A DNA stretch of 27,595 nt, from IMG/VR virus record IMGVR_UViG_3300029996_000255; one strand, 5' to 3'. Shown here piece after piece: positions 13,541 to 27,595 of the stretch (position 1 is the first letter of the stretch; each line of letters starts with the position of its first letter). Position numbers and translations under genes: made by a program. The notes beneath the pieces were generated by a model. The model searched no databases. It had not been told where the DNA came from and worked only from the letters and a program-made list of their open reading frames with translations. The stretch is from a virus. Lineage: Duplodnaviria; Heunggongvirae; Uroviricota; Caudoviricetes.

Positions 13541-13593
13541 GATTTTGAAGTCTCGGAAGCCCCATAAATAGGGCGTTTCCGAGGTCGAAAATC
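13541..13593 (+). other. Long imperfect GC-rich hairpin right after the recD2 stop codon (terminator-like or recombination-associated)
   Basis: gatttt/aaaatc, ctcggaa/ttccgag and gccc/gggc stems around the loop cataaata. No strong U-tract. Confidence 0.55.
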
Positions 13594-13596
13594 CTT

Positions 13597-13613
13597 TGAA
13601 ACCGTTCTTTCAT
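13597..13613. repeat. Intergenic site A: TGAAA-CCGTTC-TTTCAT
   Basis: Read directly from sequence. Lies between the recD2 hairpin and the SD of the next gene. Confidence 0.8.
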
Positions 13614-13635
13614 TTGGTTAAATTTGGAGGTAAAA

Positions 13636-13800
13636 ATGGAAAAATTCATCAAAATAGCAGAAATAAGCCTTTTTGAGAGTCATGAAGCAAGTAGAATGTT
13701 ATTAAGCCTTATAAATCAAGGCTTTCAGCCGATGCTTTATGAAGAATATGGTGATGGTAGAAAATTATATTATGTAATGCAAAAAGAAGAAAACAATTGA
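13636..13800 (+). CDS. 54-aa hypothetical protein (MEKFIKIAEISLFESHEASR...QKEENN), absent from the ORF track
   Basis: SD GGAGG 5 nt before ATG. Its TGA stop forms the start of site B. Confidence 0.7.
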   Translation: MEKFIKIAEISLFESHEASRMLLSLINQGFQPMLYEEYGDGRKLYYVMQKEENN

Positions 13801-13814
13801 AACTTCTGTTTCAT
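13798..13814. repeat. Intergenic site B: TGAAA-CTTCTG-TTTCAT
   Basis: Read directly from sequence. Overlaps the stop codon at 13798-13800. Confidence 0.8.
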
Positions 13815-13835
13815 ATAAAAAAAGAGAATAAATAA

Positions 13836-14023
13836 ATGTGGTGGTGGAATATGTAGACACGAAATATCCGTTATGTAGCGAGAAATGTACTTAAGTGTAC
13901 GACTGAACAATGCGCTTGGCTGTTAACCAAGAGTACGGAAGTTCTTTTCCCGTAGCGGTCACGTTAATAATACCTCTGTTTGTACAGTAATGTATATGTA
14001 GGGTGAAAATCCCTACCCACATA
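13836..14023 (+). ncRNA. tRNA-like structured RNA: class II (Leu-like) scaffold with a ~110-nt insert containing a degenerate tRNA-Asn(GUU)
   Basis: Acceptor atgtgg/ccacat, Leu-like D arm TGGTGGAATATGTAGACACG, stem aaata/tgttt, variable arm gtaca-GTAA-tgtat, T-like arm gtaggg-TGAAAAT-ccctac. Inner anticodon arm cttgg-CTGTTAA-ccaag. Confidence 0.72.
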
Positions 14024-14057
14024 TTATGAATAAAATAACAAAAAAATAGGAGGATTT

Positions 14058-14618
14058 ATGAGTTCAAAAGACAATTCATACGCAAATACAGACAAAAAGA
14101 CATTATTTTTATCTGATTATGTAGACAACGAATCTATTGGTAAATTAACATGGAGCATTTTACAACAGATTCGAGAAGATGATGAGAAAGATAAGAAAGA
14201 GAAAGATTATAAGCGTGAGCCAATTAAACTATATATCAATTCGTATGGTGGATCTGTTTATGATATGTGGGGATTAATTGATATTATTCTCAATAGCAAA
14301 ACTCCAATTTATACATATTGTACAGGATATGCAATGAGTGCAGCTTTTAAGATTTTCTTAGCAGGACATAAAAGATATTGTTATAAACATTCAACTTTTA
14401 TGTATCATCAGATGAGTTGTAGATTATCAGGAAAACTTCAGGACATTGAAGAAGATAGAAAAGAAATGGACGATCAAAATACAAAGATTGAAGAATATGT
14501 AATCGACAGAACAAATCTCATAAAAGATGATATTAAGGAGATTCGTGAAAAGAAGAAAGATTTTTATATTCATTCTGATGAGGCAGTTAAGTATGGAATT
14601 GTAGATGAAGTTTTGTAA
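14058..14618 (+). CDS. clpP: ClpP-like serine protease (peptidase S14)
   Basis: IKLYINSYGGSV, GYAMSAA (Ser), FMYHQ (His) and DFYIHSDEAVKYGIVD (Asp region). Strong SD AGGAGG. Confidence 0.9.
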   Translation: MSSKDNSYANTDKKTLFLSDYVDNESIGKLTWSILQQIREDDEKDKKEKDYKREPIKLYINSYGGSVYDMWGLIDIILNSKTPIYTYCTGYAMSAAFKIFLAGHKRYCYKHSTFMYHQMSCRLSGKLQDIEEDRKEMDDQNTKIEEYVIDRTNLIKDDIKEIREKKKDFYIHSDEAVKYGIVDEVL

Positions 14619-14633
14619 AGGAGAGTAATTAAA

Positions 14634-14858
14634 ATGAACAAATTAAACAACAAAAATATTTATTACATAGTGGGAATTAAAAATGAGAGATTACCTAGTT
14701 TGAAAAATACAACCATTAATAAAGAGTTTTGTGGGAGGATTGTTAAAATCACCGAAAACAATACATTTTTCAAGCTAAATGGTAGTGAGGTAAATGTAAT
14801 TGTCCCGACTGACTGGATAGAATATCTTGCACCATCTAAATTATTGTGGAACAAGTAA
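14634..14858 (+). CDS. Hypothetical protein, 74 aa
   Basis: SD AAGGAG. Ends in IVP-DWIEYLAP. Confidence 0.7.
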   Translation: MNKLNNKNIYYIVGIKNERLPSLKNTTINKEFCGRIVKITENNTFFKLNGSEVNVIVPTDWIEYLAPSKLLWNK

Positions 14859-14872
14859 ATTTTAAGATTGGC

Positions 14873-14890
14873 AAGAATCGACAATTTCTT
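14873..14890. repeat. Intergenic site C: AAGAAT-CGACAA-TTTCTT
   Basis: AAGAA/TTCTT arms remain complementary, with the same geometry as sites A and B. Confidence 0.65.
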
Positions 14891-14910
14891 TGGAAGAAAG
14901 GAAGGAAATT

Positions 14911-15447
14911 ATGAACACAATTGTTGTAAATTTGTTTGGTGAACCATCAGCAGGTAAGAGTACCTGTGCAATGGATATTACAGCACAATTAAAAAGACAC
15001 GGTATCAATGCTGAATATGTTTCAGAGTTCGCCAAGGATAAGGTATATGAAAATAATGACGAAGTATTTAAACACCATGAATATTTATTTGGCAAACAAT
15101 CATTCAAGATGGGTAGAGTCAAAGGAAAAGTACAAGTAATAGTAGTTGATTCCCCATTAATCTTAGGTGCTATATATAACAGAGATGAAGTATTAGGAGA
15201 AGATTTTAACAAGACTGTGTTAAATGTATTCAATTCATATAACAATAGAAATTATTTACTTACAAGACATCATCCTTATGAAAATGAGGGAAGATTCCAA
15301 AATGAAGACGAAGCAAAAGAAGTGAGAAAAGAAATTATTGATAAGTTAAATCAGTACAATATTAAATATGAAGAGATTGCTTCTACAGAATCAAATTGTG
15401 AATACATAGTGGAAGAAGTTATGGAGGAAATTAGAAATGAACAGTAA
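14911..15447 (+). CDS. P-loop NTPase (AAA_28 / NadR-like kinase family)
   Basis: NLFGEPSAGKST, YVSEFAK, IVVDSP and GRFQ motifs. ATG 14911 follows AAGGAAGGA (the ORF track starts at 14890). Confidence 0.75.
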   Translation: MNTIVVNLFGEPSAGKSTCAMDITAQLKRHGINAEYVSEFAKDKVYENNDEVFKHHEYLFGKQSFKMGRVKGKVQVIVVDSPLILGAIYNRDEVLGEDFNKTVLNVFNSYNNRNYLLTRHHPYENEGRFQNEDEAKEVRKEIIDKLNQYNIKYEEIASTESNCEYIVEEVMEEIRNEQ

Positions 15448-15598
15448 AGGACATTTATTTATTAGTTTAGGAAAATCAGCAATCAGAGTAATTGGTGGAA
15501 TTGTAACATTAGTGAACGGTTCGATTATTCCATTAGCAGTAGGAATTATTGTTGCTGAAGTTGGTGGAGTGTTAGAAGAATTGGTTGATGAGAGATAG
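15437..15598 (+). CDS. 53-aa small membrane protein (MNSKGHLFISLGKSAIRVIGGIVTLV...EELVDER), absent from the ORF track
   Basis: SD GGAGG, overlaps the upstream stop codon, contains hydrophobic Gly-rich segments. Confidence 0.72.
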   Translation: MNSKGHLFISLGKSAIRVIGGIVTLVNGSIIPLAVGIIVAEVGGVLEELVDER

Positions 15599-15601
15599 GT
15601 T

Positions 15602-15619
15602 AAAAAGCGATAGTTTCTT
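15602..15619. repeat. Intergenic site D (degenerate): AAAAAG-CGATAG-TTTCTT
   Basis: Starts 4 nt after the stop at 15598. Spacer and right arm resemble site C. Confidence 0.5.
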
Positions 15620-15640
15620 GTGAAAATTAAGGAGGCAAAA

Positions 15641-15964
15641 ATGAACAGAATAACTATTAATGGTAAAACAATCACATGTTCAGGAGCTAATGTTGTCATC
15701 AACAATGGAAAGGTTATTGTAGATGGTAAAACAATTCAAGAGTGTAATAGTGGTGATATTAAAGTCGTCATCGAAGGAGATGTCAACAAAATTGATTGTG
15801 GTGGATCAGTAGAAGTTCATGGCAATTCAGGAAGTATTGATTGCGGTGGTAGTTGTGAAGTCAGTGGAGATGTCAAAGGAGATATAGATGCAGGTGGCTC
15901 TGTAACTTGTGGTAACGTATTAGGTGATATAGATGCTGGTGGAAGTGTGAGATGTAGAAGATAA
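15641..15964 (+). CDS. Beta-solenoid repeat protein (bactofilin / DUF4097-like)
   Basis: Repeats of G-D/S-I-D-(C/A)-G-G-S-V. ATG 15641 follows AAGGAGG. Confidence 0.65.
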   Translation: MNRITINGKTITCSGANVVINNGKVIVDGKTIQECNSGDIKVVIEGDVNKIDCGGSVEVHGNSGSIDCGGSCEVSGDVKGDIDAGGSVTCGNVLGDIDAGGSVRCRR

Positions 15965-15977
15965 GGAGAATAACATA

Positions 15978-16598
15978 ATGTATAACAAATTAACAGACAA
16001 ACAGTATAACATTGCCATTGGTATTATCTTACTTTGGGGATTTTTAGTGAATACAATAATGTGTGTATTTTTTCAAGACACATTTTGCAACTTAAATCCA
16101 ACAATGGTATTAATTGGCTACTTTGTAGTTGCATTAGCAGGTATTGGTATGAGTGAGTTTTCAGACAACCCAATTGTGAGTTTTATAGGATATAACTTAG
16201 TTGTATTGCCAGTTGGTGTAGTTTTAAGTATTTGCTTAAAGGATTATTATATGTCATCCATTGTACAAGCTTTTATTTTGACTACTTTGATTACCATTGT
16301 GCTTATCATTGTATCAAGTATTAAACCAGAAATATTTCTATCAATGGGAAAAACATTATTTATTTGTTTATCAGCAGTTATAGTAATTGAATTTATTATG
16401 ATTTTATTTGGTAATGTACCTAAATGGTGGGATTGGATTGTCGCATTGTTATTCTGCGGATATATTGGATATGATTGGGCAGAAGCACAAAATAATGCAA
16501 AAACTTTAGATAATGCTATAGATAGTGCAGTTGCTTTATATCTTGATATCATCAATTTGTTTTTAAGACTGTTAGGAAGCAGTAAAGATGATGATTAA
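15978..16598 (+). CDS. Bax inhibitor-1 / YccA family multi-pass membrane protein
   Basis: About 7 hydrophobic segments, LFCGYIGYD, and the signature AVALYLDIINLFLRLL. Confidence 0.88.
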   Translation: MYNKLTDKQYNIAIGIILLWGFLVNTIMCVFFQDTFCNLNPTMVLIGYFVVALAGIGMSEFSDNPIVSFIGYNLVVLPVGVVLSICLKDYYMSSIVQAFILTTLITIVLIIVSSIKPEIFLSMGKTLFICLSAVIVIEFIMILFGNVPKWWDWIVALLFCGYIGYDWAEAQNNAKTLDNAIDSAVALYLDIINLFLRLLGSSKDDD

Positions 16599-16605
16599 AA
16601 GTAGC

Positions 16606-16623
16606 AGGAAACCATTATTTCAT
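16606..16623. repeat. Intergenic site E: AGGAAA-CCATTA-TTTCAT
   Basis: Read directly from sequence. Lies between the BI-1 stop codon and the next SD. Confidence 0.8.
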
Positions 16624-16645
16624 GTGTTTATAAGGAGATGAGATA

Positions 16646-16849
16646 ATGAAAACATGGTTAGTAAAACGACAACACGATAATGTTATTGTGACGATAATGA
16701 AGAATAAATCTGATGAAACATATTCTTTTATTAATCTAACAAAAGAACATATTTGTTCATGTAAATTTAATAGTATAAATGATGCATTAAAAGATATGAA
16801 TAGACTAAAAGATTGTGGGAAAATTATTAATTATTTTGAATTGAAATAA
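16646..16849 (+). CDS. Hypothetical protein, 67 aa
   Basis: SD AAGGAG. Contains FINLTKEHICSCKF. Confidence 0.75.
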   Translation: MKTWLVKRQHDNVIVTIMKNKSDETYSFINLTKEHICSCKFNSINDALKDMNRLKDCGKIINYFELK

Positions 16850-16850
16850 T

Positions 16851-16871
16851 AAACATTAATTATTTCATGTG
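16851..16871. repeat. Intergenic site F (left arm degenerate): AAACAT-TAATTA-TTTCATGTG
   Basis: Shares the 13 bp ATTATTTCATGTG with site E. Confidence 0.6.
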
Positions 16872-16889
16872 GATATTAGGAGGTAGATA

Positions 16890-17150
16890 ATGAAAGCAAT
16901 TTTACAGTATACGGATTGTATGCGTGACGATAAGAATGTTTTTGGAGTATTAGCTTTGAACAATGTAGAAGTAATTAAAACGAAACAGGGAATGTCTATT
17001 TATCCACTTGTTACAATTAGAGTCAAAGATACAGATACACTCAACAAAATTCTAAAACAACTAAATGAAAAATCGCATTACGGGGTTAGGATTGCAAAAG
17101 TGAAATCAGATAAATCATTTATTGAGAGATTGAAGATGTTATTTGAATAA
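16890..17150 (+). CDS. Hypothetical protein, 86 aa
   Basis: SD AGGAGGT. Confidence 0.75.
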   Translation: MKAILQYTDCMRDDKNVFGVLALNNVEVIKTKQGMSIYPLVTIRVKDTDTLNKILKQLNEKSHYGVRIAKVKSDKSFIERLKMLFE

Positions 17151-17156
17151 ATTCAT

Positions 17157-17174
17157 AGGAAACTAAACTTTCAT
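17157..17174. repeat. Intergenic site G: AGGAAA-CTAAAC-TTTCAT
   Basis: Read directly from sequence. Lies between the stop at 17150 and the SD of thyX. Confidence 0.8.
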
Positions 17175-17201
17175 TAGATTAAAAAAATAGGAGGATTAAT
17201 T

Positions 17202-17813
17202 TTGAAAACAGTTTTTAACTGGTTTGGTGATGATTGGAAGAGAGTAAAGAATCATTGTAGAACCACGGATAATAAAGATTTTACAGAGAACGAAGCAACA
17301 GATACTTTTAAAAAGAAGTTGCTTATATCTGAACATTCGCCAATTAGATTACTTGAATTTGATTGGTCATGGAAAGGTATTTATTATTGGCTGAGTACAG
17401 AATGGTCAAGACATAAATTTGAAAAATTTATTAGCTCTCAAAGAGATGATAGATTGGTCGATGATACTCCACGAGGAAAGAAACCACAAGATGCATTGGT
17501 TAATTTTGATGGTTATGCTAATGAGCAAAACTGTATTGATGGATGGAGAAAAAGATTGTGTGGAAACGCCACACCAGAAGCCGTTGAATTGGCAGAAGAT
17601 TTCAAAATTGAATTACATAAAACACATCCATTAGAATCAGATGTTTTAGTACCTAATTGCATTTATAGGGCAGGGTGTCCTGAATTTCGTTGTTGTGGTA
17701 AGATTGCTGAATTTATAAAATGGGCAAAGGATAATAACAAGAAAATTAATTGGCTTAATATTCAAAATAGATATGATTTATACAATGAATGGTTTTATGA
17801 AGTACACAAGTAA
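17202..17813 (+). CDS. thyX: Divergent flavin-dependent thymidylate synthase (ThyX-like), TTG start
   Basis: EHSPIR, EWSRHK...SSQR (variant of the RHR-X7-S motif), RKRLC and VPNCIYRAGCPE. Confidence 0.78.
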   Translation: MKTVFNWFGDDWKRVKNHCRTTDNKDFTENEATDTFKKKLLISEHSPIRLLEFDWSWKGIYYWLSTEWSRHKFEKFISSQRDDRLVDDTPRGKKPQDALVNFDGYANEQNCIDGWRKRLCGNATPEAVELAEDFKIELHKTHPLESDVLVPNCIYRAGCPEFRCCGKIAEFIKWAKDNNKKINWLNIQNRYDLYNEWFYEVHK

Positions 17814-17826
17814 ATGTTCATTTCAT
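17809..17826. repeat. Intergenic site H: AGTAAA-TGTTCA-TTTCAT
   Basis: Overlaps the thyX TAA stop and directly abuts SD AGGAGGTG. Confidence 0.7.
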
Positions 17827-17840
17827 AGGAGGTGATTAAT

Positions 17841-18053
17841 ACGAGAGATCCAAATAGATTATATAACTTTTACAACGAAGTAACCCGATTACACATGACA
17901 TACATGCCTGATTGGAGAGTTGGTCAGTTTTGGATGAACTTTTTAGGCTGGGTGCAAAATGTAAAGAAACGAGATCCGTTCTTCCCAGAAGAGTCAGAAA
18001 TGCTTACATACTTAAAAGAATATTGTGGAGAAGAGGAGGAAGTAAATGGATAA
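17841..18053 (+). CDS. Hypothetical phage protein (M-RDPNRL...PDWRVGQF), probable ACG start
   Basis: The track's GTG 17832 lies inside SD AGGAGGTG. An in-frame ACG lies 6 nt downstream of the SD. Confidence 0.7.
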   Translation, partial: TRDPNRLYNFYNEVTRLHMTYMPDWRVGQFWMNFLGWVQNVKKRDPFFPEESEMLTYLKEYCGEEEEVNG

Positions 18054-20016
18054 GTTAGAAAGAATAAAACAACTTATTAAAGAGTTGAATAATGCATCAT
18101 ATGCTTATTATAATCAAGTACCAATAATGCCAGATTATGAATGGGATAAAATGTATGATGAATTAGTAAATCTCGAAGAAGAGACTGGTATTGTTGTATT
18201 ATCTAACAGTCCAACACATAACGTTGGTTATTCAGTTGCAGACGAATTAAAAGAAGTAGAGCACAATCATCCAATGCTTTCACTTGATAAAACAAAATCA
18301 GTAGATGAGTTAATTGAATTTATTAAAAATAAGGATTGCTTCTTATCTGTTAAAGCTGATGGTTTAACCACGTCTCTTCATTATATTAATGGTAAGTTAA
18401 TTGGTGCAGAAACTAGGGGCGATGGAGTGAGAGGTACTGAATGCCTTCAGAATGTATTAACAATGAAAAACGTACCAAAGGAAATTACATATAAGGATGA
18501 ACTTATTATTGATGGCGAAACAATTATTGGATGGGATACTTTCAGAGAGATTAATGATAAACTTTCAGAAGATAAGAAATATAAGCACCCAAGGAATCTC
18601 GTATCTGGTTCATTACAATTGCTCGATAGTAAGGAAGCTGCAAACAGAAATATGAGATTTGTCGCTTGGAGAGTAATTAAGGGATTTGAACATAAAATGC
18701 CAAGTAAAGATTTGTTTGAAGCTAAAGATATTGGATTTGAGATTATACCGATATTAAAATCACCTAGAATTAATCAGAAAAAAGAGTTAGTAATCTTATT
18801 AAATCAAATAAGAGAATCAGCAAACTCACATAATATTCCTTATGATGGAGCTGTTATGGCGATTGATGATTATAAAATTGCAGAGTCTATGGGAAGAACG
18901 GATAAATTCTTCCGACATTCGATGGCATATAAATATGAAGATGAATTATTTGAAACAGTGCTTACAGATATTGAATGGAATACCTCTAAGACAGGCTTAA
19001 TTAATCCTGTGGCAATCTTCAAGCCAGTTGACTTAAATGGAGCAATTACCACAAGAGCAACGCTTCACAACATTACATATATTAAAGATATGATGCTTGG
19101 TATTGGAGATAGAATTAGGGTTTATCGTTCAAATATGGTTATTCCTAAAGTACACGATAGCATTGATAAGAGTGGTAATTTTAAAATTCCTAACAAGTGT
19201 CCTATTTGCGGTCAACCTACAAGAATTGTTAAAGAAAATGACTCTGAGGTACTTATGTGCGAAAATCCAGACTGCAAGGGCAAACTCTTGGGTAAATTGG
19301 TTCACGCAGCAAGCCGAAATGCGTTAGATATTGAAAATCTTTCAGAATCTACAATAGAAAAATTCATTAATCTTGGTTGGCTAAACTCAATTAAGGATAT
19401 TTATCATTTATCAGACTATGAAAATGAAATGAAAGCTTTAGAAGGCTTTGGTAAAAGATCTGTTGAAAAACTTCTTAACTCTATTGAAGAGTCTCGTAAT
19501 ACAAATCTTCAGCGTTTTCTTTATAGTTTATCAATCCCATTGCTCGGCAAATCAGCAAGTATGATGATTGCAGAAGCAGTTGATTATGATGTTCAAGAGT
19601 TTGCTTCTATTATGTATGATAAGGGTGCAAAATTCTTTAGGTATTTACCAGGTGTTGGTGATGCAATTATTGATTCGTTGCAAACTTATTGGAATAAAAA
19701 TGAATCAGAGTTTATGTCTTTAACATTTGAATTACATTTTGAGAAAAAGAAAAATCCAATAAATCTAATATTAAATAATACTTCACTTGATGGTAAAACA
19801 TTTGTTGTAACTGGCTCAGTACATCATTATAAAAATCGTGATGAATTAAAAGCCGATATAGTTACTCATGGCGGTACAGTCGTAGGTTCTGTAAGTTCTA
19901 AAACATCTTATCTTATTAACAATGATATCAATTCAACTTCATCTAAAAATCAGAAAGCAAAATTGCTTAATATTCCAATTATTTCAGAAGAAGAATTCCT
20001 TTCTATGATCCAGTAG
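18046..20016 (+). CDS. ligA: NAD-dependent DNA ligase
   Basis: AYY...DYEWD, HPMLSL, KADG adenylation motif, TRGDG, AYKY, a CPIC...C...C Zn finger, HhH repeats and a BRCT domain (GKTFVVTG). Confidence 0.96.
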   Translation: MDKLERIKQLIKELNNASYAYYNQVPIMPDYEWDKMYDELVNLEEETGIVVLSNSPTHNVGYSVADELKEVEHNHPMLSLDKTKSVDELIEFIKNKDCFLSVKADGLTTSLHYINGKLIGAETRGDGVRGTECLQNVLTMKNVPKEITYKDELIIDGETIIGWDTFREINDKLSEDKKYKHPRNLVSGSLQLLDSKEAANRNMRFVAWRVIKGFEHKMPSKDLFEAKDIGFEIIPILKSPRINQKKELVILLNQIRESANSHNIPYDGAVMAIDDYKIAESMGRTDKFFRHSMAYKYEDELFETVLTDIEWNTSKTGLINPVAIFKPVDLNGAITTRATLHNITYIKDMMLGIGDRIRVYRSNMVIPKVHDSIDKSGNFKIPNKCPICGQPTRIVKENDSEVLMCENPDCKGKLLGKLVHAASRNALDIENLSESTIEKFINLGWLNSIKDIYHLSDYENEMKALEGFGKRSVEKLLNSIEESRNTNLQRFLYSLSIPLLGKSASMMIAEAVDYDVQEFASIMYDKGAKFFRYLPGVGDAIIDSLQTYWNKNESEFMSLTFELHFEKKKNPINLILNNTSLDGKTFVVTGSVHHYKNRDELKADIVTHGGTVVGSVSSKTSYLINNDINSTSSKNQKAKLLNIPIISEEEFLSMIQ

Positions 20017-20056
20017 ATTAGATTTTGTTCGTTATAGAAGGAGGTGACAAAGAAAC

Positions 20057-20293
20057 GTGAATTATATAAATGCAGGTAAGTTAAGAAGTTTTCTCGAAAA
20101 TGTTCCTTCAAATTCTTATGTAGCTGTAGGTACAAGAGAGAATAATGAAATAGAAGAAATTAGACAAGAATCTGGCATTGTTGATATGAATATAAAATCT
20201 GTCGGATTCGATACTAATAATTCTAATGAAGTATATGTCAAATTATATACAAATAAATATAGCGGAAGTGGGTGTTTAAGATTTACAAGATAA
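20057..20293 (+). CDS. Hypothetical protein, 78 aa
   Basis: SD AAGGAGGTG with a GTG start. Confidence 0.65.
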   Translation: MNYINAGKLRSFLENVPSNSYVAVGTRENNEIEEIRQESGIVDMNIKSVGFDTNNSNEVYVKLYTNKYSGSGCLRFTR

Positions 20294-20967
20294 GCAATAT
20301 GGCTATATCTCTCGTATTAGCAAGCACGCTTGTCGCCCCTTTGAGGGCAGAAAACATACAAGCTATAACTGCTAATGCAGCACAGATTAACTATTATGAA
20401 TCACATTTTTATGTAAAAACCAGAGAAAAAATGCTTCAACGACAACTAGAAATGAATAAATGCCAAAAAAATATAGCAACAGAGAATAATGAAGAGGATG
20501 ATACAACTCCTGTCATTATAGAAGAAACTTATTATATTGATATGGATGTACCAGGAACTAAACCATTCAAATCATATATGGATGCAAGGTTGATAACAAG
20601 TACAAATTCAGCACAATATAAGCTTAAGTCTGAGTATGAGCTTGATGATTCAGGTATCTATATGGTTGATGGACGCTATGCTTGTGCTATCGGTTCTTAT
20701 TATAGTACGGAGATAGGTACAAAATTTGATGTTGTTATGGAATCAGGCGAAGTAATTCCTTGTATTCTCGCAGATTGTAAGGCAGATGAACATACAGATA
20801 GTTTAGGACAGTATACAGTTAGCAATGGTTCTATAGTTGAATTTATAGTACACACGCCAACATTAATCCCTAATATTTCTAATCGTTGGGGTAATACGGG
20901 CGATGTATCTACTTTAGGTGGAATTTTTGAAGGTGAAATAGCTTACATAAGAATGTATTTTGATTAA
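20272..20967 (+). CDS. Secreted protein with C-terminal 3D / double-psi-barrel-like peptidoglycan-related domain
   Basis: N-terminal signal-like segment, coiled and acidic linker, then GRYACAIGSYY...GTKFDV...CILAD and IVEFIV. Confidence 0.5.
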   Translation: MFKIYKISNMAISLVLASTLVAPLRAENIQAITANAAQINYYESHFYVKTREKMLQRQLEMNKCQKNIATENNEEDDTTPVIIEETYYIDMDVPGTKPFKSYMDARLITSTNSAQYKLKSEYELDDSGIYMVDGRYACAIGSYYSTEIGTKFDVVMESGEVIPCILADCKADEHTDSLGQYTVSNGSIVEFIVHTPTLIPNISNRWGNTGDVSTLGGIFEGEIAYIRMYFD

Positions 20968-20981
20968 GTAAGGAATGGAAT

Positions 20982-21221
20982 ATGTTAGAAACAACAGCAG
21001 TTATTAGATTAGACAATATTAAAAGAATAAAAGATTTTGTAGATATAGTGTCTAAATATGATGAAGAAATAACAATTAAATCACACAGATATGAAGTTAA
21101 TGCAAAATCTATTATGGCAATATTTTCACTTAACTTGTTAGAACTGGTAAATGTTTGTCTATATTGTGATGATAGAAATGTGGTTGAAAGATTTATAAAA
21201 GATATGGAGGGATTCGAGTGA
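20982..21221 (+). CDS. HPr-family protein lacking the His15 motif
   Basis: DFVDIVSKYDEEITI...VNAKSIMAIFSL (Ser46 signature). No GLHARP motif. Confidence 0.85.
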   Translation: MLETTAVIRLDNIKRIKDFVDIVSKYDEEITIKSHRYEVNAKSIMAIFSLNLLELVNVCLYCDDRNVVERFIKDMEGFE

Positions 21222-21808
21222 TTGTATTAGTTGGAAAAAGCTGTTCAGGGAAAGATAGTGTAGCAAAAATATTGTACTCTATGGGATATTCAAGGGTTGC
21301 CACCTGTACAACAAGACCTATGAGAATAGGAGAGACTGATGGTGTAGATTATTATTTCATCACCCAGTTTGAATTTATGAATATGATCGAAAAAGGCGAT
21401 TTTGCAGAATATAGAGAATACGAAACTGAAAAAGGAATGTGGTTATATGGCAGTCGTTTAGATGATTATAAATATGCATCTAATAAGGTCATTATTTTAA
21501 CCCCTGAAGGTCTTGAAAATATTAAGAAGAAATATCCTTATTTACCTATTGTTTCTATATACCTTGAGGTATCTAATAAAGAACTTAAAAAGAGAATGTT
21601 CATGCGTTCCAATGGTTCTATTGAAGACACCAAAGAAAACAAGCGTAGATATAAAGCTGATAAGAAAGATTTCAAGCATATTAAGAAGTATGTTGATTAT
21701 GTAGTGAATAATGAATTAAGGGATGCTTACGATACTGCTCATATCTGTAAGGAGTTAGATGAAATTGAAAAAAGAAAACATAGAAAGAATTTATTGTGGA
21801 AATCGTAA
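21218..21808 (+). CDS. gmk: Guanylate kinase
   Basis: GKSCSGKD, TTRPMRIGETDGVDYYF and WLYG motifs. Confidence 0.92.
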   Translation: MIVLVGKSCSGKDSVAKILYSMGYSRVATCTTRPMRIGETDGVDYYFITQFEFMNMIEKGDFAEYREYETEKGMWLYGSRLDDYKYASNKVIILTPEGLENIKKKYPYLPIVSIYLEVSNKELKKRMFMRSNGSIEDTKENKRRYKADKKDFKHIKKYVDYVVNNELRDAYDTAHICKELDEIEKRKHRKNLLWKS

Positions 21809-21962
21809 TTGTCCATATATAGATTGTGTAAGACATAATAAGAACACACCGTTTAATGTCCAATTCCTTAGAGAAAATTATAGCTTAGATAAAAATGGTG
21901 AATGTAAATACAAATTAAGCGATTGGAGGATTGATTATGTTAATAGAGACTACAGAAATTAA
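21759..21962 (+). CDS. Small Cys-rich hypothetical protein
   Basis: SD AAGGAG. Contains YCGNRNCPYIDCVRH...C. Confidence 0.65.
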   Translation: MKLKKENIERIYCGNRNCPYIDCVRHNKNTPFNVQFLRENYSLDKNGECKYKLSDWRIDYVNRDYRN

Positions 21963-22065
21963 TATGAATAATATTACTGTTAGCGATTGTATAGAATTGT
22001 TTGAATGTAAGAATACAAGAGTCGTTATTAGTGATGGTAATGTTGTTGAATTTGAGGAGGAATAA
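21937..22065 (+). CDS. 42-aa acidic hypothetical protein (MLIETTEINMNNITVSDCIELFECKNTRVVISDGNVVEFEEE), absent from the ORF track
   Basis: SD GGAGGA. Fills the gap before nrdD. Confidence 0.65.
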   Translation: MLIETTEINMNNITVSDCIELFECKNTRVVISDGNVVEFEEE

Positions 22066-22068
22066 ATA

Positions 22069-24225
22069 TTGAAGGTAATTAAAAGAGATTGTTTAGAAGT
22101 TAATTTTGATAAATCAAAAATATCATCCGCAATTCTTAAAGCTATGAAAAATGGATCTGGTATTGTAAAGCCTAAGATTGCGAAAGACATTGCAGATGAA
22201 ATCGAAAATGAGTGTAAGGATAAAGAAGAAATAAGTATCTCTGATATTGAATCAATGGTTTATGATAAATTGATTACTAAGAAGCAGAGACTTACTGCAA
22301 AAGCATACGAAGGATATAGAAGTATTCGTGAGTTTCAGAGAGAAAACGAGAATACAACGGATTCCGAGGTTGATGAACTGTTAGATGGTGAAAGCGAATA
22401 TTGGAATACTGAAAATTCCAATAAGAACTCAAAAGTATTAAATACTCAGCGTGATTATATGGCAGGAATTGTTAGTAAAGATATTTCTCGTAGATTTTTA
22501 CTTCCACCAGAAGTTGTACAAGCACACGATGAAGGTATTATTCATTTCCACGATATTGACTATTTTGGTATGAATGCGATGAGTAACTGCTCACTTATTA
22601 ATCTTGAAGATATGTTACAGAATGGTACTTGTATTAACAAGGTAATGATTGAAAAACCACATAGATTTATTACTGCTTGTACAATCGCCACTCAGATTAT
22701 TCTTGGTGTTACGTCACTTCAGTATGGAGGGGCTACAATTACTCTTACACATTTAGCACCATTTGTAAGAGATAGTTACAACAAATACTATGAGAAATAT
22801 AAGTCATGGGGATTTTCTGATGAAGATTGTAAGAGATATGCAGAATCTGATACTAAAAAAGAAGTAGCAGATGGTGTTCAGACTTTTAACTATCAGTGCA
22901 ATTCTATGTCTAACTCAAATGGGCAGTCTCCTTTTTTGAGTGTATTCATGTATCTTGGAGAGACTACAGAGTATAAGAAAGAACTCGCAATGATTATTGA
23001 AGAGTTTCTTAATCAGAGATTACTTGGTCTTAAAAATGAAGTTGGCGTATATGTCACACAGGCATTTCCAAAACTTCTCTATGTCTTAGAAGAAGATAAT
23101 ATTCATGAAAATTCCCCTTATTGGTATTTAACAAAACTTGCAGCTAAGTGTACTGCAAAAAGAATGAATCCTGATTATATTTCAGAGAAGATTATGAAGA
23201 AATATAAAGAAGGTAACTGTTTTCCATGTATGGGCTGCCGTAGTTTTCTTTCACCTTATAAAGATGAGAATGATAAGCCTAAATTCTACGGAAGATTCAA
23301 TCAAGGTGTTGTAACATTGAATCTTGTTGATGTAGCGTTATCATCTGAAGGCGATTATGAAAAGTTTTGGGATTTGATGGAACAGAGAACAGAATTATGT
23401 CATAAAGCATTACTTTGCAGGCATAAACGATTAGAAGGAACATTATCTGATGTCGCACCTATATTATGGCAGTATGGAGCATTTGCAAGACTTAAAAAAG
23501 GTGAAAAGATTGATAAGTTGCTTCATAATGGATACGCAAGTATTTCTCTTGGATATGCAGGTTTATATGAATGTGTAAAATATATGACTGGTAAATCACA
23601 TATTGATTCACAGGAAGGTCATGATTTTGGCATTAAAGTAATGCAGTTTATGAACGATAAATGTGACCAGTGGAATAAAGAACATTATATTGGATTTTCA
23701 ATTTACGGATCTCCAATCGAAAACACAACGTATAAATTTGCGAAGTGTCTACAGAAACGCTTTGGAATTATTAAAGGTATTACAGATAGAAATTATATCA
23801 CAAACAGTTATCATACATTTGTAAAAGAACCAATTAATGCATTTGATAAACTTGCTAAAGAATCAGAATTTCAGGCGTTATCACTTGGAGGTGCAATATC
23901 TTATGTTGAAACAGATGGATTGGTAAATAATGTAGATGCTATTTTGGAAATGAACAAATTCATCTACGACCATATCATGTATGCAGAAGAAAATACAAAG
24001 TCTGATTACTGTCAGGTTTGTGGTTACGACGGTGAAATCAAAATTATTGATGAATGTGGCGAACTTATTTGGGAATGCCCAAATTGCCACAATAGAGATA
24101 AAGACAAGATGAATGTAGCTAGAAGGACTTGCGGATATATTGGAACTAATTACTGGGGAAAAGGACGTACTCAGGAAATTAAGGAGAGATATGTTCATAC
24201 GACAGATATTGCGGAGGATTTATAA
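22069..24225 (+). CDS. nrdD: Anaerobic (class III) ribonucleoside-triphosphate reductase
   Basis: ATP cone (VIKRD...FDKSKI), IHFHD, NCSL, MGCRS, CQVC/CPNC Zn site and the glycyl-radical motif RRTCGYIG. Confidence 0.97.
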   Translation: MKVIKRDCLEVNFDKSKISSAILKAMKNGSGIVKPKIAKDIADEIENECKDKEEISISDIESMVYDKLITKKQRLTAKAYEGYRSIREFQRENENTTDSEVDELLDGESEYWNTENSNKNSKVLNTQRDYMAGIVSKDISRRFLLPPEVVQAHDEGIIHFHDIDYFGMNAMSNCSLINLEDMLQNGTCINKVMIEKPHRFITACTIATQIILGVTSLQYGGATITLTHLAPFVRDSYNKYYEKYKSWGFSDEDCKRYAESDTKKEVADGVQTFNYQCNSMSNSNGQSPFLSVFMYLGETTEYKKELAMIIEEFLNQRLLGLKNEVGVYVTQAFPKLLYVLEEDNIHENSPYWYLTKLAAKCTAKRMNPDYISEKIMKKYKEGNCFPCMGCRSFLSPYKDENDKPKFYGRFNQGVVTLNLVDVALSSEGDYEKFWDLMEQRTELCHKALLCRHKRLEGTLSDVAPILWQYGAFARLKKGEKIDKLLHNGYASISLGYAGLYECVKYMTGKSHIDSQEGHDFGIKVMQFMNDKCDQWNKEHYIGFSIYGSPIENTTYKFAKCLQKRFGIIKGITDRNYITNSYHTFVKEPINAFDKLAKESEFQALSLGGAISYVETDGLVNNVDAILEMNKFIYDHIMYAEENTKSDYCQVCGYDGEIKIIDECGELIWECPNCHNRDKDKMNVARRTCGYIGTNYWGKGRTQEIKERYVHTTDIAEDL

Positions 24226-24767
24226 TGAGATACGCACAGATTAGATCTATGGATATTTCTAATGGAGAGGGAGTAGGAGTCTCCCTCTTCGTCCAAGGTT
24301 GTCCATTTCACTGTAAAAACTGTTTTAATTCTGATACATGGGATTTTAATGGTGGTAAAGAATGGACAGAAGAAATAAAAGATAGATTTATGAAATTAAT
24401 TGATAGACCATATATTAAACGAATATCATTTCTTGGTGGTGAGTGTTTAGCAGAACAGAATCTTGATGAAGTCCTCAAATTAGTCCAAGAAATCCGTATT
24501 TCATTTCCTAAGAAATCTATTTGGTTATATACGGGATATGAATTATCAGAGATTATAAAGCAAGAACAATACGAGAAAGTTAGTGGAATACCTAGTGTTT
24601 GGTCAAAACGATGGAAGATAATTTCTAATATAGATGTGCTTGTTGACGGAGAATATATAGATGAGCAGAAAGACCTTACATTGAAATGGCGAGGCAGCAA
24701 GAACCAAAACTGTATTGATGTGAAACAATCTCTTGCTCAAAACAAAGTAGTTTTATATTGTGATTAG
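24225..24767 (+). CDS. nrdG: Anaerobic RNR activating protein (radical SAM)
   Basis: NGEGVGVSLFVQGCPFHCKNCFN, LGGE, WLYTGY, DVLVDG and RGSKNQ motifs. Confidence 0.96.
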   Translation: MRYAQIRSMDISNGEGVGVSLFVQGCPFHCKNCFNSDTWDFNGGKEWTEEIKDRFMKLIDRPYIKRISFLGGECLAEQNLDEVLKLVQEIRISFPKKSIWLYTGYELSEIIKQEQYEKVSGIPSVWSKRWKIISNIDVLVDGEYIDEQKDLTLKWRGSKNQNCIDVKQSLAQNKVVLYCD

Positions 24768-25970: not shown

Positions 25971-25976
25971 TTAAGT

Positions 25977-26612
25977 ACGGCAAATTACCTATATGATAAA
26001 TTTAAAGGAAAATATAGAATACGTGCTCCAATTAATCAAATAACAAATGATTTTAATAGAAAGCTCAATGGCACATTAGAAGATATAGATTGTTACATAG
26101 ATTGCCAGTTTGGTAATAAAGTATTCTATTATGGACACAACATTTTACAAGCATATATTCCTTCTCTTGGAAGAGGACATAACATTCTTAAAAATCTTGA
26201 AGAAACGGACAAATCTTTGATATTTGACATTGAAGAAACGGACTCTGAAATTCTGTTTAAATTCAAATTCATCAACTCTGACAAAATTATCCCATTGTTA
26301 AAACCTAAAACAAGTGGTTCTCAGACAAGCCCTTTTTCGCCTAAAAATCTCCCAAAATCTAATTTTAAAATCCCAGATGATAAATTGACACAGTATAAAC
26401 AAATCGTGTCTAAAATTCCTCCTGAGAAGCTTTTAACCCTAAGTAGAATAACCAATTCATTCTTGCAAACTTTAGTTACAAAAAAGAACACTTGGGAGAA
26501 TATTAAATCAGATATGAGATTAAAATGCCTTAAAGGTAAAGAATATATTTACTGCATTGGTAAGTGGAACGAGTATCTTGTATATCTTAAAAATAACATT
26601 AAAAATATGTAG
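25977..26612 (+). CDS. Hypothetical protein of ~211 aa with probable ACG start (the track calls only 26217-26612)
   Basis: The frame is open from 25971. SD AAAGGAGTGA is followed by 6 nt and then ACG GCA AAT TAC. No in-frame ATG, GTG or TTG occurs for 80 codons. Confidence 0.7.
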   Translation, partial: TANYLYDKFKGKYRIRAPINQITNDFNRKLNGTLEDIDCYIDCQFGNKVFYYGHNILQAYIPSLGRGHNILKNLEETDKSLIFDIEETDSEILFKFKFINSDKIIPLLKPKTSGSQTSPFSPKNLPKSNFKIPDDKLTQYKQIVSKIPPEKLLTLSRITNSFLQTLVTKKNTWENIKSDMRLKCLKGKEYIYCIGKWNEYLVYLKNNIKNM

Positions 26613-27412: not shown

Positions 27413-27595
27413 ATGGAAGATAAAATTTTATTATCAATAAAAGAGGCTTCGAATTTATTTGGAATTGGGCAACATAGATTAAGAGATATAATTGAAGAAG
27501 ATTATGAATGTAAATATCATTTAATGCTTGGGCGTACAATTAAAATTAAACGAAAACAATTTGAAGATTTTTTAAATAAAGCTGAACAAATATAA
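27413..27595 (+). CDS. xis: Excisionase, Tn916 Xis-like winged helix
   Basis: LLSIKEASNLFGIGQHRLR...GRTIKIKRKQFEDFL pattern. Confidence 0.8.
   Translation: MEDKILLSIKEASNLFGIGQHRLRDIIEEDYECKYHLMLGRTIKIKRKQFEDFLNKAEQI

Follow-up and report, generated by a model that had tools for sequence, protein, structure and literature searches.

Gene-boundary sites with ordered, position-specific 6-bp centres in a phage genome fragment and its relatives: putative addresses for module exchange

The window analysed here, a stretch of 27,595 nucleotides from a virus of the Caudoviricetes (IMG/VR record IMGVR_UViG_3300029996_000255), carries between recD2 and the ligase gene ligA an array of accessory genes separated by eight short sites, each consisting of two arms around a 6-bp centre (hereafter designated the spacer). 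We found that these sites are real and non-random and form part of a family-wide architecture, in which each spacer keeps its map position as an address while the genes around it are replaced. The two-armed structure, the order of the addresses and the breakpoints are directly observed; from them we infer a catalytic role, namely that the sites are probably crossover sites of the Xer/lox type, which need spacer identity and would give in-register exchange of slots between phage genomes.

The eight sites, reported by a first-pass annotation made from the letters alone, were all present on the + strand with the arms, spacers and positions given there (TTTC starting at 13608, 13809, 14885, 15614, 16618, 16863, 17169 and 17821). 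They are site 1 (13596..13613; CCGTTC, the first array address in the window's lineage, where most relatives have GACGGA), site 2 (13797..13814; CTTCTG), site 3 (14873..14890; CGACAA, a variant of the address CGACAG), site 4 (15602..15619; CGATAG), site 5 (16606..16623; CCATTA, an address found in 34 sites), site 6 (16851..16868; TAATTA), site 7 (17157..17174; CTAAAC, found in 19 sites) and site 8 (17809..17826; TGTTCA, found in 27 sites). Sites 3, 5, 7 and 8 carry recurrent array addresses, G001, the nearest record, also has the spacers of sites 1 and 2, and sites 4 and 6, both with weak left arms, are the weakest two. As had also been noted, two left arms overlap the upstream stop codon, at 13800 (site 2) and 17813 (site 8). 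Intergenic TTTC(A/T)T on the + strand of the window is confined to these eight sites (18 more lie in coding sequence), the expectation for the 630 bp of intergenic DNA in the array being 0.43, and a site occupies all eight intergenic gaps of at least 18 bp in the array but none of the seven elsewhere in the window. The strict pattern RAAA-N6-TTTCWT, matched by only four of the eight sites, is weakly enriched on its own (6 matches versus 2.0 expected; 3 of 100 shuffles reach 6).

A search with RecD2 gave 79 viral loci, many of them on 120–190 kb contigs, and an array set of 51 sequences was taken, comprising the window and 50 loci with RecD2 identity of at least 86% (loci below 86%, L070 with another gene group, L057 without a flank and L045, a duplicate of L011, were dropped). 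The recD2-to-ligase interval proved hypervariable, holding largely different genes although RecD2 was 94–98% identical. A matrix scan of the 51 arrays, trained on the same arrays, found 210 sites, the density per intergenic kb being 4.92 in the array (a partly circular figure), 0 in 22.6 kb of replisome DNA and 0.33 downstream, and that in coding DNA 0.06–0.14 per kb. The claim that core replisome genes lack such sites was thus upheld, whereas that for the ligA-dut block stands for the window's intergenic DNA only: relatives do have some intergenic sites there, and a perfect motif copy, probably a codon coincidence, lies in the coding DNA of nrdG (24487..24504) and in two of four related nrdG genes. 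Of the 210 array sites, 164 carry GACGGA, CGACAG, CCATTA, CTAAAC, TTGGAC or TGTTCA, in this order; none of 266 address pairs was reversed, and in 4 pairs one class occurred twice. The spacer is therefore fixed in length, as first described, but not freely variable, since it is kept by map position.

CCATTA alone is flanked by 13 upstream and 18 downstream gene families, and alignment of the related arrays bore out that units bounded by sites are gained, lost and replaced, with homology switching inside the sites. Partner fidelity across junctions was 0.20 with a site (n = 87) versus 0.44 without one (n = 137), and four-combination quartets numbered 12 at five addresses versus 1 among 135 site-less pairs. 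Gene families nevertheless stay in their own slots, five of 293 gene pairs being reversed, each within a single slot.

These observations bear on the analogy with integrons and Tn916-family integrases originally drawn for the array; in an array of that kind, units would excise as circles, reinsert anywhere, tolerate non-identical spacers and be freely reordered. The five gene-order reversals, second, decayed address copies inside slots and a Tn916-Xis gene in the window speak for such an array, but the unbroken order of the addresses and the fidelity of gene families to their slots speak against it. Moreover, no hairpin covariation of the arms was detected (in 187 sites, pairing was as expected at each of the 22 distances), the sites had no Rfam match, and the best of 13 recombinases from relatives reached 60 bits with the integron integrase model TIGR02249, against a cut-off of 265. 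Both arms share one consensus, arranged A-n6-T, and spacers are retained by position, whereas Tn1549 targets T4-n6-A4, with the opposite arm orientation and no need for homology (PMC5871717; this and the other cited sources are drawn on in excerpt). Neither half of the analogy is sustained, and we consider an array of this kind improbable. As for the decayed copies, site 4 is likely a second copy of the address CGACAG, because its downstream gene directly follows CGACAG in L011, L033 and L045, and site 6 likely one of CCATTA, because its downstream gene follows CCATTA in L044 and in contigs of run X1; since such copies occur inside slots, a minor accretion mode may exist.

The position at which homology switches was examined in pairs of sites homologous on the left or on the right, the dominant GACGGA class being left out. 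Variable left-arm positions matched in 0.80–0.85 of left-homologous and 0.53–0.68 of right-homologous pairs, whereas position +6 matched in 0.46 and 0.86, respectively; position +4 separated the two groups weakly (0.57 and 0.70). By sequence comparison, the switch thus lies between positions −7 and +6 of the site. In G001 (L113 ~10600-10090), the replication module differs from that of the window and site 1 is preceded by a different gene, but the first two spacers of the window are present, CCGTTC with different genes on either side and CTTCTG as a copy with a decayed arm. The blocks that G001 has in common with the window (13798-14027, 14879-17186 and 17812-23431; 97.7–98.4% identity) start or end at sites 2, 3, 7 and 8. 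Thus, the 97.8% block starts at the CTTCTG copy, the 98.4% block at 14879, the first spacer base of site 3, and the 97.7% block at 17812 in site 8, while past site 7 G001 goes on with other genes. Contig pieces of independent runs likewise terminate at 15608, 16626, 16859, 17174 and 17809; the end at 16626 (site 5) was seen in pieces from three runs, and a piece also starts at 15608 (site 4). In total, 52 of 189 alignment ends in the window fell within 15 bp of a site, a zone covering 5.5% of positions.

The sites extend beyond the recD2 array. In six relatives of the window phage, 43–58 intergenic matches were found per genome (coding matches numbered 21–55, so that some are due to chance), with a single spacer recurring in the same orientation. 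Any two of these genomes had 20–32 spacers in common, 18–29 of them collinear, versus 0–2 in a reverse-orientation control, and 42 addresses were present in at least three of the six. Outside the recD2 array, neither flank was homologous in 242 of 331 same-address pairs. Two more distant relatives showed enrichment of a TGAA-N8-TTCA dyad and had only 0–2 spacers in common with the six; therefore, the address books are lineage-specific. A scan of a viral collection with one full site gave a mixture of matches, most of them attributable to chance. On one 21-kb viral contig (L388-L390), three exact copies of one full site run counter to the one-copy rule and may be an unrelated repeat.

Among named phages, the closest to the window are SPbeta-like, at <35% identity. 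The window-arm pattern was not enriched in SPbeta (15 versus 20 in the control), and a dyad with different arms, TAAAA-N6-TTTTA, of the shape 11-6-11, was enriched in SPbeta and phi3T. SPbeta has 43 such sites and phi3T 41, with no centre repeated; 27 are common to both and collinear, and at 12 of these one or both flanks have been replaced. Many of these dyads overlap stop codons, and at least one is annotated as a stem-loop in the SPbeta record. Inverted arms around a fixed 6-bp centre, the geometry of a tyrosine-recombinase core site, are thus seen in the relatives and in SPbeta and phi3T. Dyads of this type were also enriched in Geobacillus E3 (43 versus 14.6) and BcoS-136 (27 versus 10), weakly in a Staphylococcus SPbeta-like phage (20 versus 12.8), and not in Sundance or TR-TP2. 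Separately, phi3T contains a repeat of 18 bp, its centre constant, in seven copies (W02 70534, 76035, 90127, 90566, 107652, 107913 and 121046), probably the SroF boxes.

A regulatory explanation has to be weighed against this background. The sites could be operators of a master repressor of the MrpR/SroF type, their spacers conserved by descent and without a role in exchange; SPbeta-like phages do use a recombinase-fold repressor on a dispersed repeat (PMC10516654), and in every relative a comparable regulatory block includes a recombinase-fold gene. An operator is, however, expected to travel with its downstream gene, yet the spacers persist when both neighbours are replaced, a fact that the operator-only alternative of the first-pass annotation also fails to explain. 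The sites are placed at stop codons and ahead of ribosome-binding sites rather than at promoters, and phi3T has the separate seven-copy repeat. We therefore judge operators to be very improbable.

If the sites are instead spacer-addressed crossover sites, as we prefer, the exchange would take place between phage genomes residing in one cell, that is, a prophage and a superinfecting phage. A recombinase would bind the arms and exchange strands across the 6-bp centre, and sites would recombine only with a partner carrying the same centre. A single crossover would produce an in-register chimera and two crossovers would swap the slot between two addresses, whereas unique centres would guard against deletion inside a single genome. 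Now and then, a join or insertion out of register would duplicate an address, and the second copy would then decay, as presumed for sites 4 and 6 of the window.

The best candidate for the enzyme is a single-copy recombinase of the YomM clade next to an HU gene. Ten relatives encode 2–5 proteins each with a tyrosine-recombinase domain, and one of these adjoins the HU gene in seven near-complete genomes. The HU-adjacent recombinases cluster with SPbeta YomM and YopP (support 97/99), with YomM as the best tblastn match, and a YomM-clade gene was found in 43 of 45 records, including all 33 that are at least 90% complete. The copies from Lachnospiraceae phages retain the catalytic H-x-x-R and Tyr; the closest solved relative of the clade is XerA, and a structure model of the 344-aa candidate (pLDDT 70.9) confirmed the tyrosine-recombinase fold and nothing beyond. 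None of the 13 recombinases from relatives scored above the cut-offs of the IntI, XerC, XerD, XerS and XerA models, and a search for 'yomM' with 'phage' gave no paper in the literature covered (which took in neither subscription journals nor the SPbeta genome paper of 1999). Also rejected as the site enzyme, because they vary among relatives, were the Sro-like-locus recombinase and the integrases at the genome end. It is conceivable, if somewhat doubtful, that in SPbeta-like phages ~40 mutually orthogonal natural sites are read by one dedicated YomM-clade recombinase for address-directed 'sex' between phages; if so, lineage-specific address books would act as recombination barriers.

Several results weigh against spacer-addressed exchange or against this enzyme. 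The compared pairs are phylogenetically non-independent, position +4 is not tied to the right flank within the genome-wide subset, and the arms are partly address-specific (0.49–0.64 versus 0.34–0.52). Within gene-junction zones the excess of alignment ends near sites shrinks to 52 of 167 versus 22.6% expected, and, of these 167 ends, 58 are found at the 3' end of recD2, the point at which the lineage of the window diverges, and 27 at the edges of clpP, which are breakpoints without a site in the window. Addresses are no more dissimilar than shuffled ones (p 0.18–0.5), and between SPbeta and phi3T only 7 of 57 block ends are 15 bp or less from a site (1% expected). As to the enzyme, YomM-clade alleles are 17–25% identical among genomes with one address book, the commonest allele accounts for 14 of the 45 records, a YomM-clade gene is present in Sundance without site enrichment, and SPbeta YomM (L169 4302-5303; identical in phi3T) has Lys for the second catalytic Arg. 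No enzyme tracking the sites was found among the phage genes compared: when SPbeta proteins were profiled across 14 phages, no gene was confined to site-bearing phages, and a core-gene search over five genomes gave no conserved recombinase allele, only the replication module (at least 87% conserved), in which G001 differs even though it shares addresses. Finally, in four laboratory SPbeta x phi3T(s) hybrids, nine crossovers were counted after removal of piece-edge artefacts and single-base flips, seven in long identity (uninformative) and two resolved and off sites; none was at a site-only junction.

Some of these points favour a different explanation, in which the dyads are bound by a dimeric protein for another purpose, such as regulation or nucleoid organisation, and general annealing or recombination machinery uses the 12–18 shared bases as microhomology. 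The spacers would then stay put without any site-specific recombinase, being the sole homology left between unrelated neighbours, which fits the lack of a conserved enzyme among relatives, the partly address-specific arms and the 17% of exact shared runs that reach 20 bp. The median of these runs, however, 14 bp in 1351 pairs with unrelated flanks, is short for RecA-type exchange; the strict 6-bp spacing and the change of arm variants on either side of the spacer agree with strand exchange at the centre; and promoters are not enriched in the array (19 versus 27.7 expected), a terminator scan likewise showing no enrichment. Published work lends this explanation support, in that homology-driven shuffling was proposed for the PeSL cassettes (PMC2839356) and the laboratory hybrids cross over in ordinary homology, 15 of 16 junctions lying in homology and one, non-homologous, 'following yosA' (bioRxiv 10.1101/2020.05.06.055103). 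A site shared by SPbeta and phi3T, with unrelated flanks, is located ~90 bp downstream of the yosA stop and may be that junction, which was not counted above. Collectively, microhomology is a rather unlikely account of the sites. One hybrid, Hyb3 (W11 116116-116119), has a 20-bp deletion between 4-bp repeats at the bnrdF 3' end that is in neither parent.

The window itself represents that arm of a large temperate phage which serves replication and nucleotide metabolism, encoding DnaE, a RecJ-like protein, RecD2, NAD ligase, NrdD/G, dUTPase and, at its end (27413-27595), a Tn916-Xis-family excisionase identified by Pfam and absent from the first description; relatives have a tyrosine integrase at the genome end matching this end. 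The eight bacterial records in the RecD2 search were mostly Lachnospiraceae, at 74–82% identity, and the host is therefore probably a gut member of this family. No RNA data set was listed as containing the window, and runs with only a small share of it were left out of any reading of habitat. An imperfect inverted repeat of 25–40 bp lies just 5' of some sites (window 13550-13590; G001, L113 ~10010-9985 and ~5665-5640) and also precedes the first site after recD2 in most relatives. A coding-like segment of 246 bp (25971-26216) may extend the 131-aa open reading frame (ORF) at 26217 in the upstream direction.

All genes of the array are on the + strand. The unit between sites 1 and 2 is a 54-aa ORF (13636..13800) with no relative among the 79 loci, G001 having another gene in that place. 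It is followed by an RNA scaffold (13835..14024) that is shaped like a tRNA and whose central insert varies. Eleven distinct copies of 132–193 nt were found (the window, L004, L014, L023, L026, L028, L031, L039, L056, L103 and L113), in which the acceptor, D-like and T-like ends are conserved and the centre holds one of at least four unrelated inserts. ARAGORN and Rfam make no call for this RNA, first labelled tRNA-like; the fold has z = −1.1. Next come a ClpP-family protease gene (14058..14618; PF00574), which is slot-1 cargo in relatives, and a 74-aa ORF (14634..14858) without a relative among the 79 loci. Slot-2 cargo comprises the AAA_28 NTPase and a 53-aa membrane protein, inherited together (14911..15598), and a 107-aa protein (phrog_3163, unknown) with a Bax1-I membrane protein (15641..16598). 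A 67-aa ORF (16646..16849) follows CCATTA in relatives, an 86-aa ORF (16890..17150) is slot-3 cargo, and the 203-aa gene first labelled thyX (17202..17813) has other genes in its place in relatives. Pfam confirmed the labels ClpP, NTPase (AAA_28) and BI-1 (Bax1-I), whereas thyX and the beta-solenoid assigned to the 107-aa protein found no named family in Pfam, PHROG or NCBIfam. The slot before TGTTCA is usually occupied by one of four gene families of 200–270 aa (g17, g25, g32 and g40), apparently alternative ThyX-like genes.

How phage genomes come to be mosaics joined at gene boundaries is a long-standing question, to which the usual answer is random recombination and selection. Ordered, uniquely labelled joints offer a directly testable alternative, and, with 43 of them, the model phage SPbeta makes the test feasible in Bacillus subtilis. 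If true, addressed exchange would account for the movement of counter-defence and metabolic genes among phages residing in one cell, and a recombinase able to use dozens of natural, orthogonal sites would be of value for engineering. In the literature searched, within the same bounds as above, no account was found of phage dyads that are ordered and uniquely spaced, and the excerpted text of bioRxiv 10.1101/2021.11.22.469490 mentions neither palindromes nor yomM.

Known systems resemble the phage sites in part. Integrons (IntI, attI, attC) share compact, mostly promoterless ORFs between recombination-like sites, but the phage array has no IntI and no hairpin attC, and its order is fixed. In heterospecific lox/FRT cassette exchange, the spacer is the address, and two different addresses allow replacement without excision; such sets are engineered with two or three addresses, whereas the phage set is natural and has ~40. 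The PeSL cassettes of T4-type phages are also marked by a dispersed intergenic motif where accessory ORFs are gained and lost, but this motif is a promoter with a stem-loop of similar sequence, homologous recombination was proposed, and the excerpted text describes no unique ordered centres (PMC2839356); a promoter consensus with a G/C stem-loop is not found at the phage sites. The SPBRE/Phi3TRE operators of MrpR/SroF are dispersed intergenic repeats of the same phage group with a recombinase-fold reader, but number about ten promoter sites with a 15-bp motif and a repressor without catalysis, in contrast to the 43 SPbeta dyads with unique centres (PMC10516654, bioRxiv 10.1101/2025.11.27.690993). 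XerH-difH and XerS-difSL share the A-tract arm, 6-bp centre and T-tract arm, with inner bases giving specificity (PMC5241119, PMC3325230, PMC5357621), and XerH reads mainly the inner 5 bp of the similar difH core (PMC3325230, PMC5241119); they differ in having one site per chromosome for FtsK-dependent dimer resolution, and difH has four inner A versus three in the phage sites. Closest are the pdif/dif modules of Acinetobacter plasmids (XerC/XerD), in which two-armed sites border the accessory modules and recombine through identical 6-bp spacers, a module being replaced via a cointegrate and a second crossover (PMC13141974), a behaviour that the phage sites match by sequence comparison. Unlike pdif, the phage site is one symmetric dyad, without XerC and XerD arms and without their alternating orientation, and ~40 addresses with almost never repeated spacers hold a fixed order across a 150-kb genome. 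It may be concluded that the phage system is probably a further form of spacer-addressed module exchange, with a putative catalyst.

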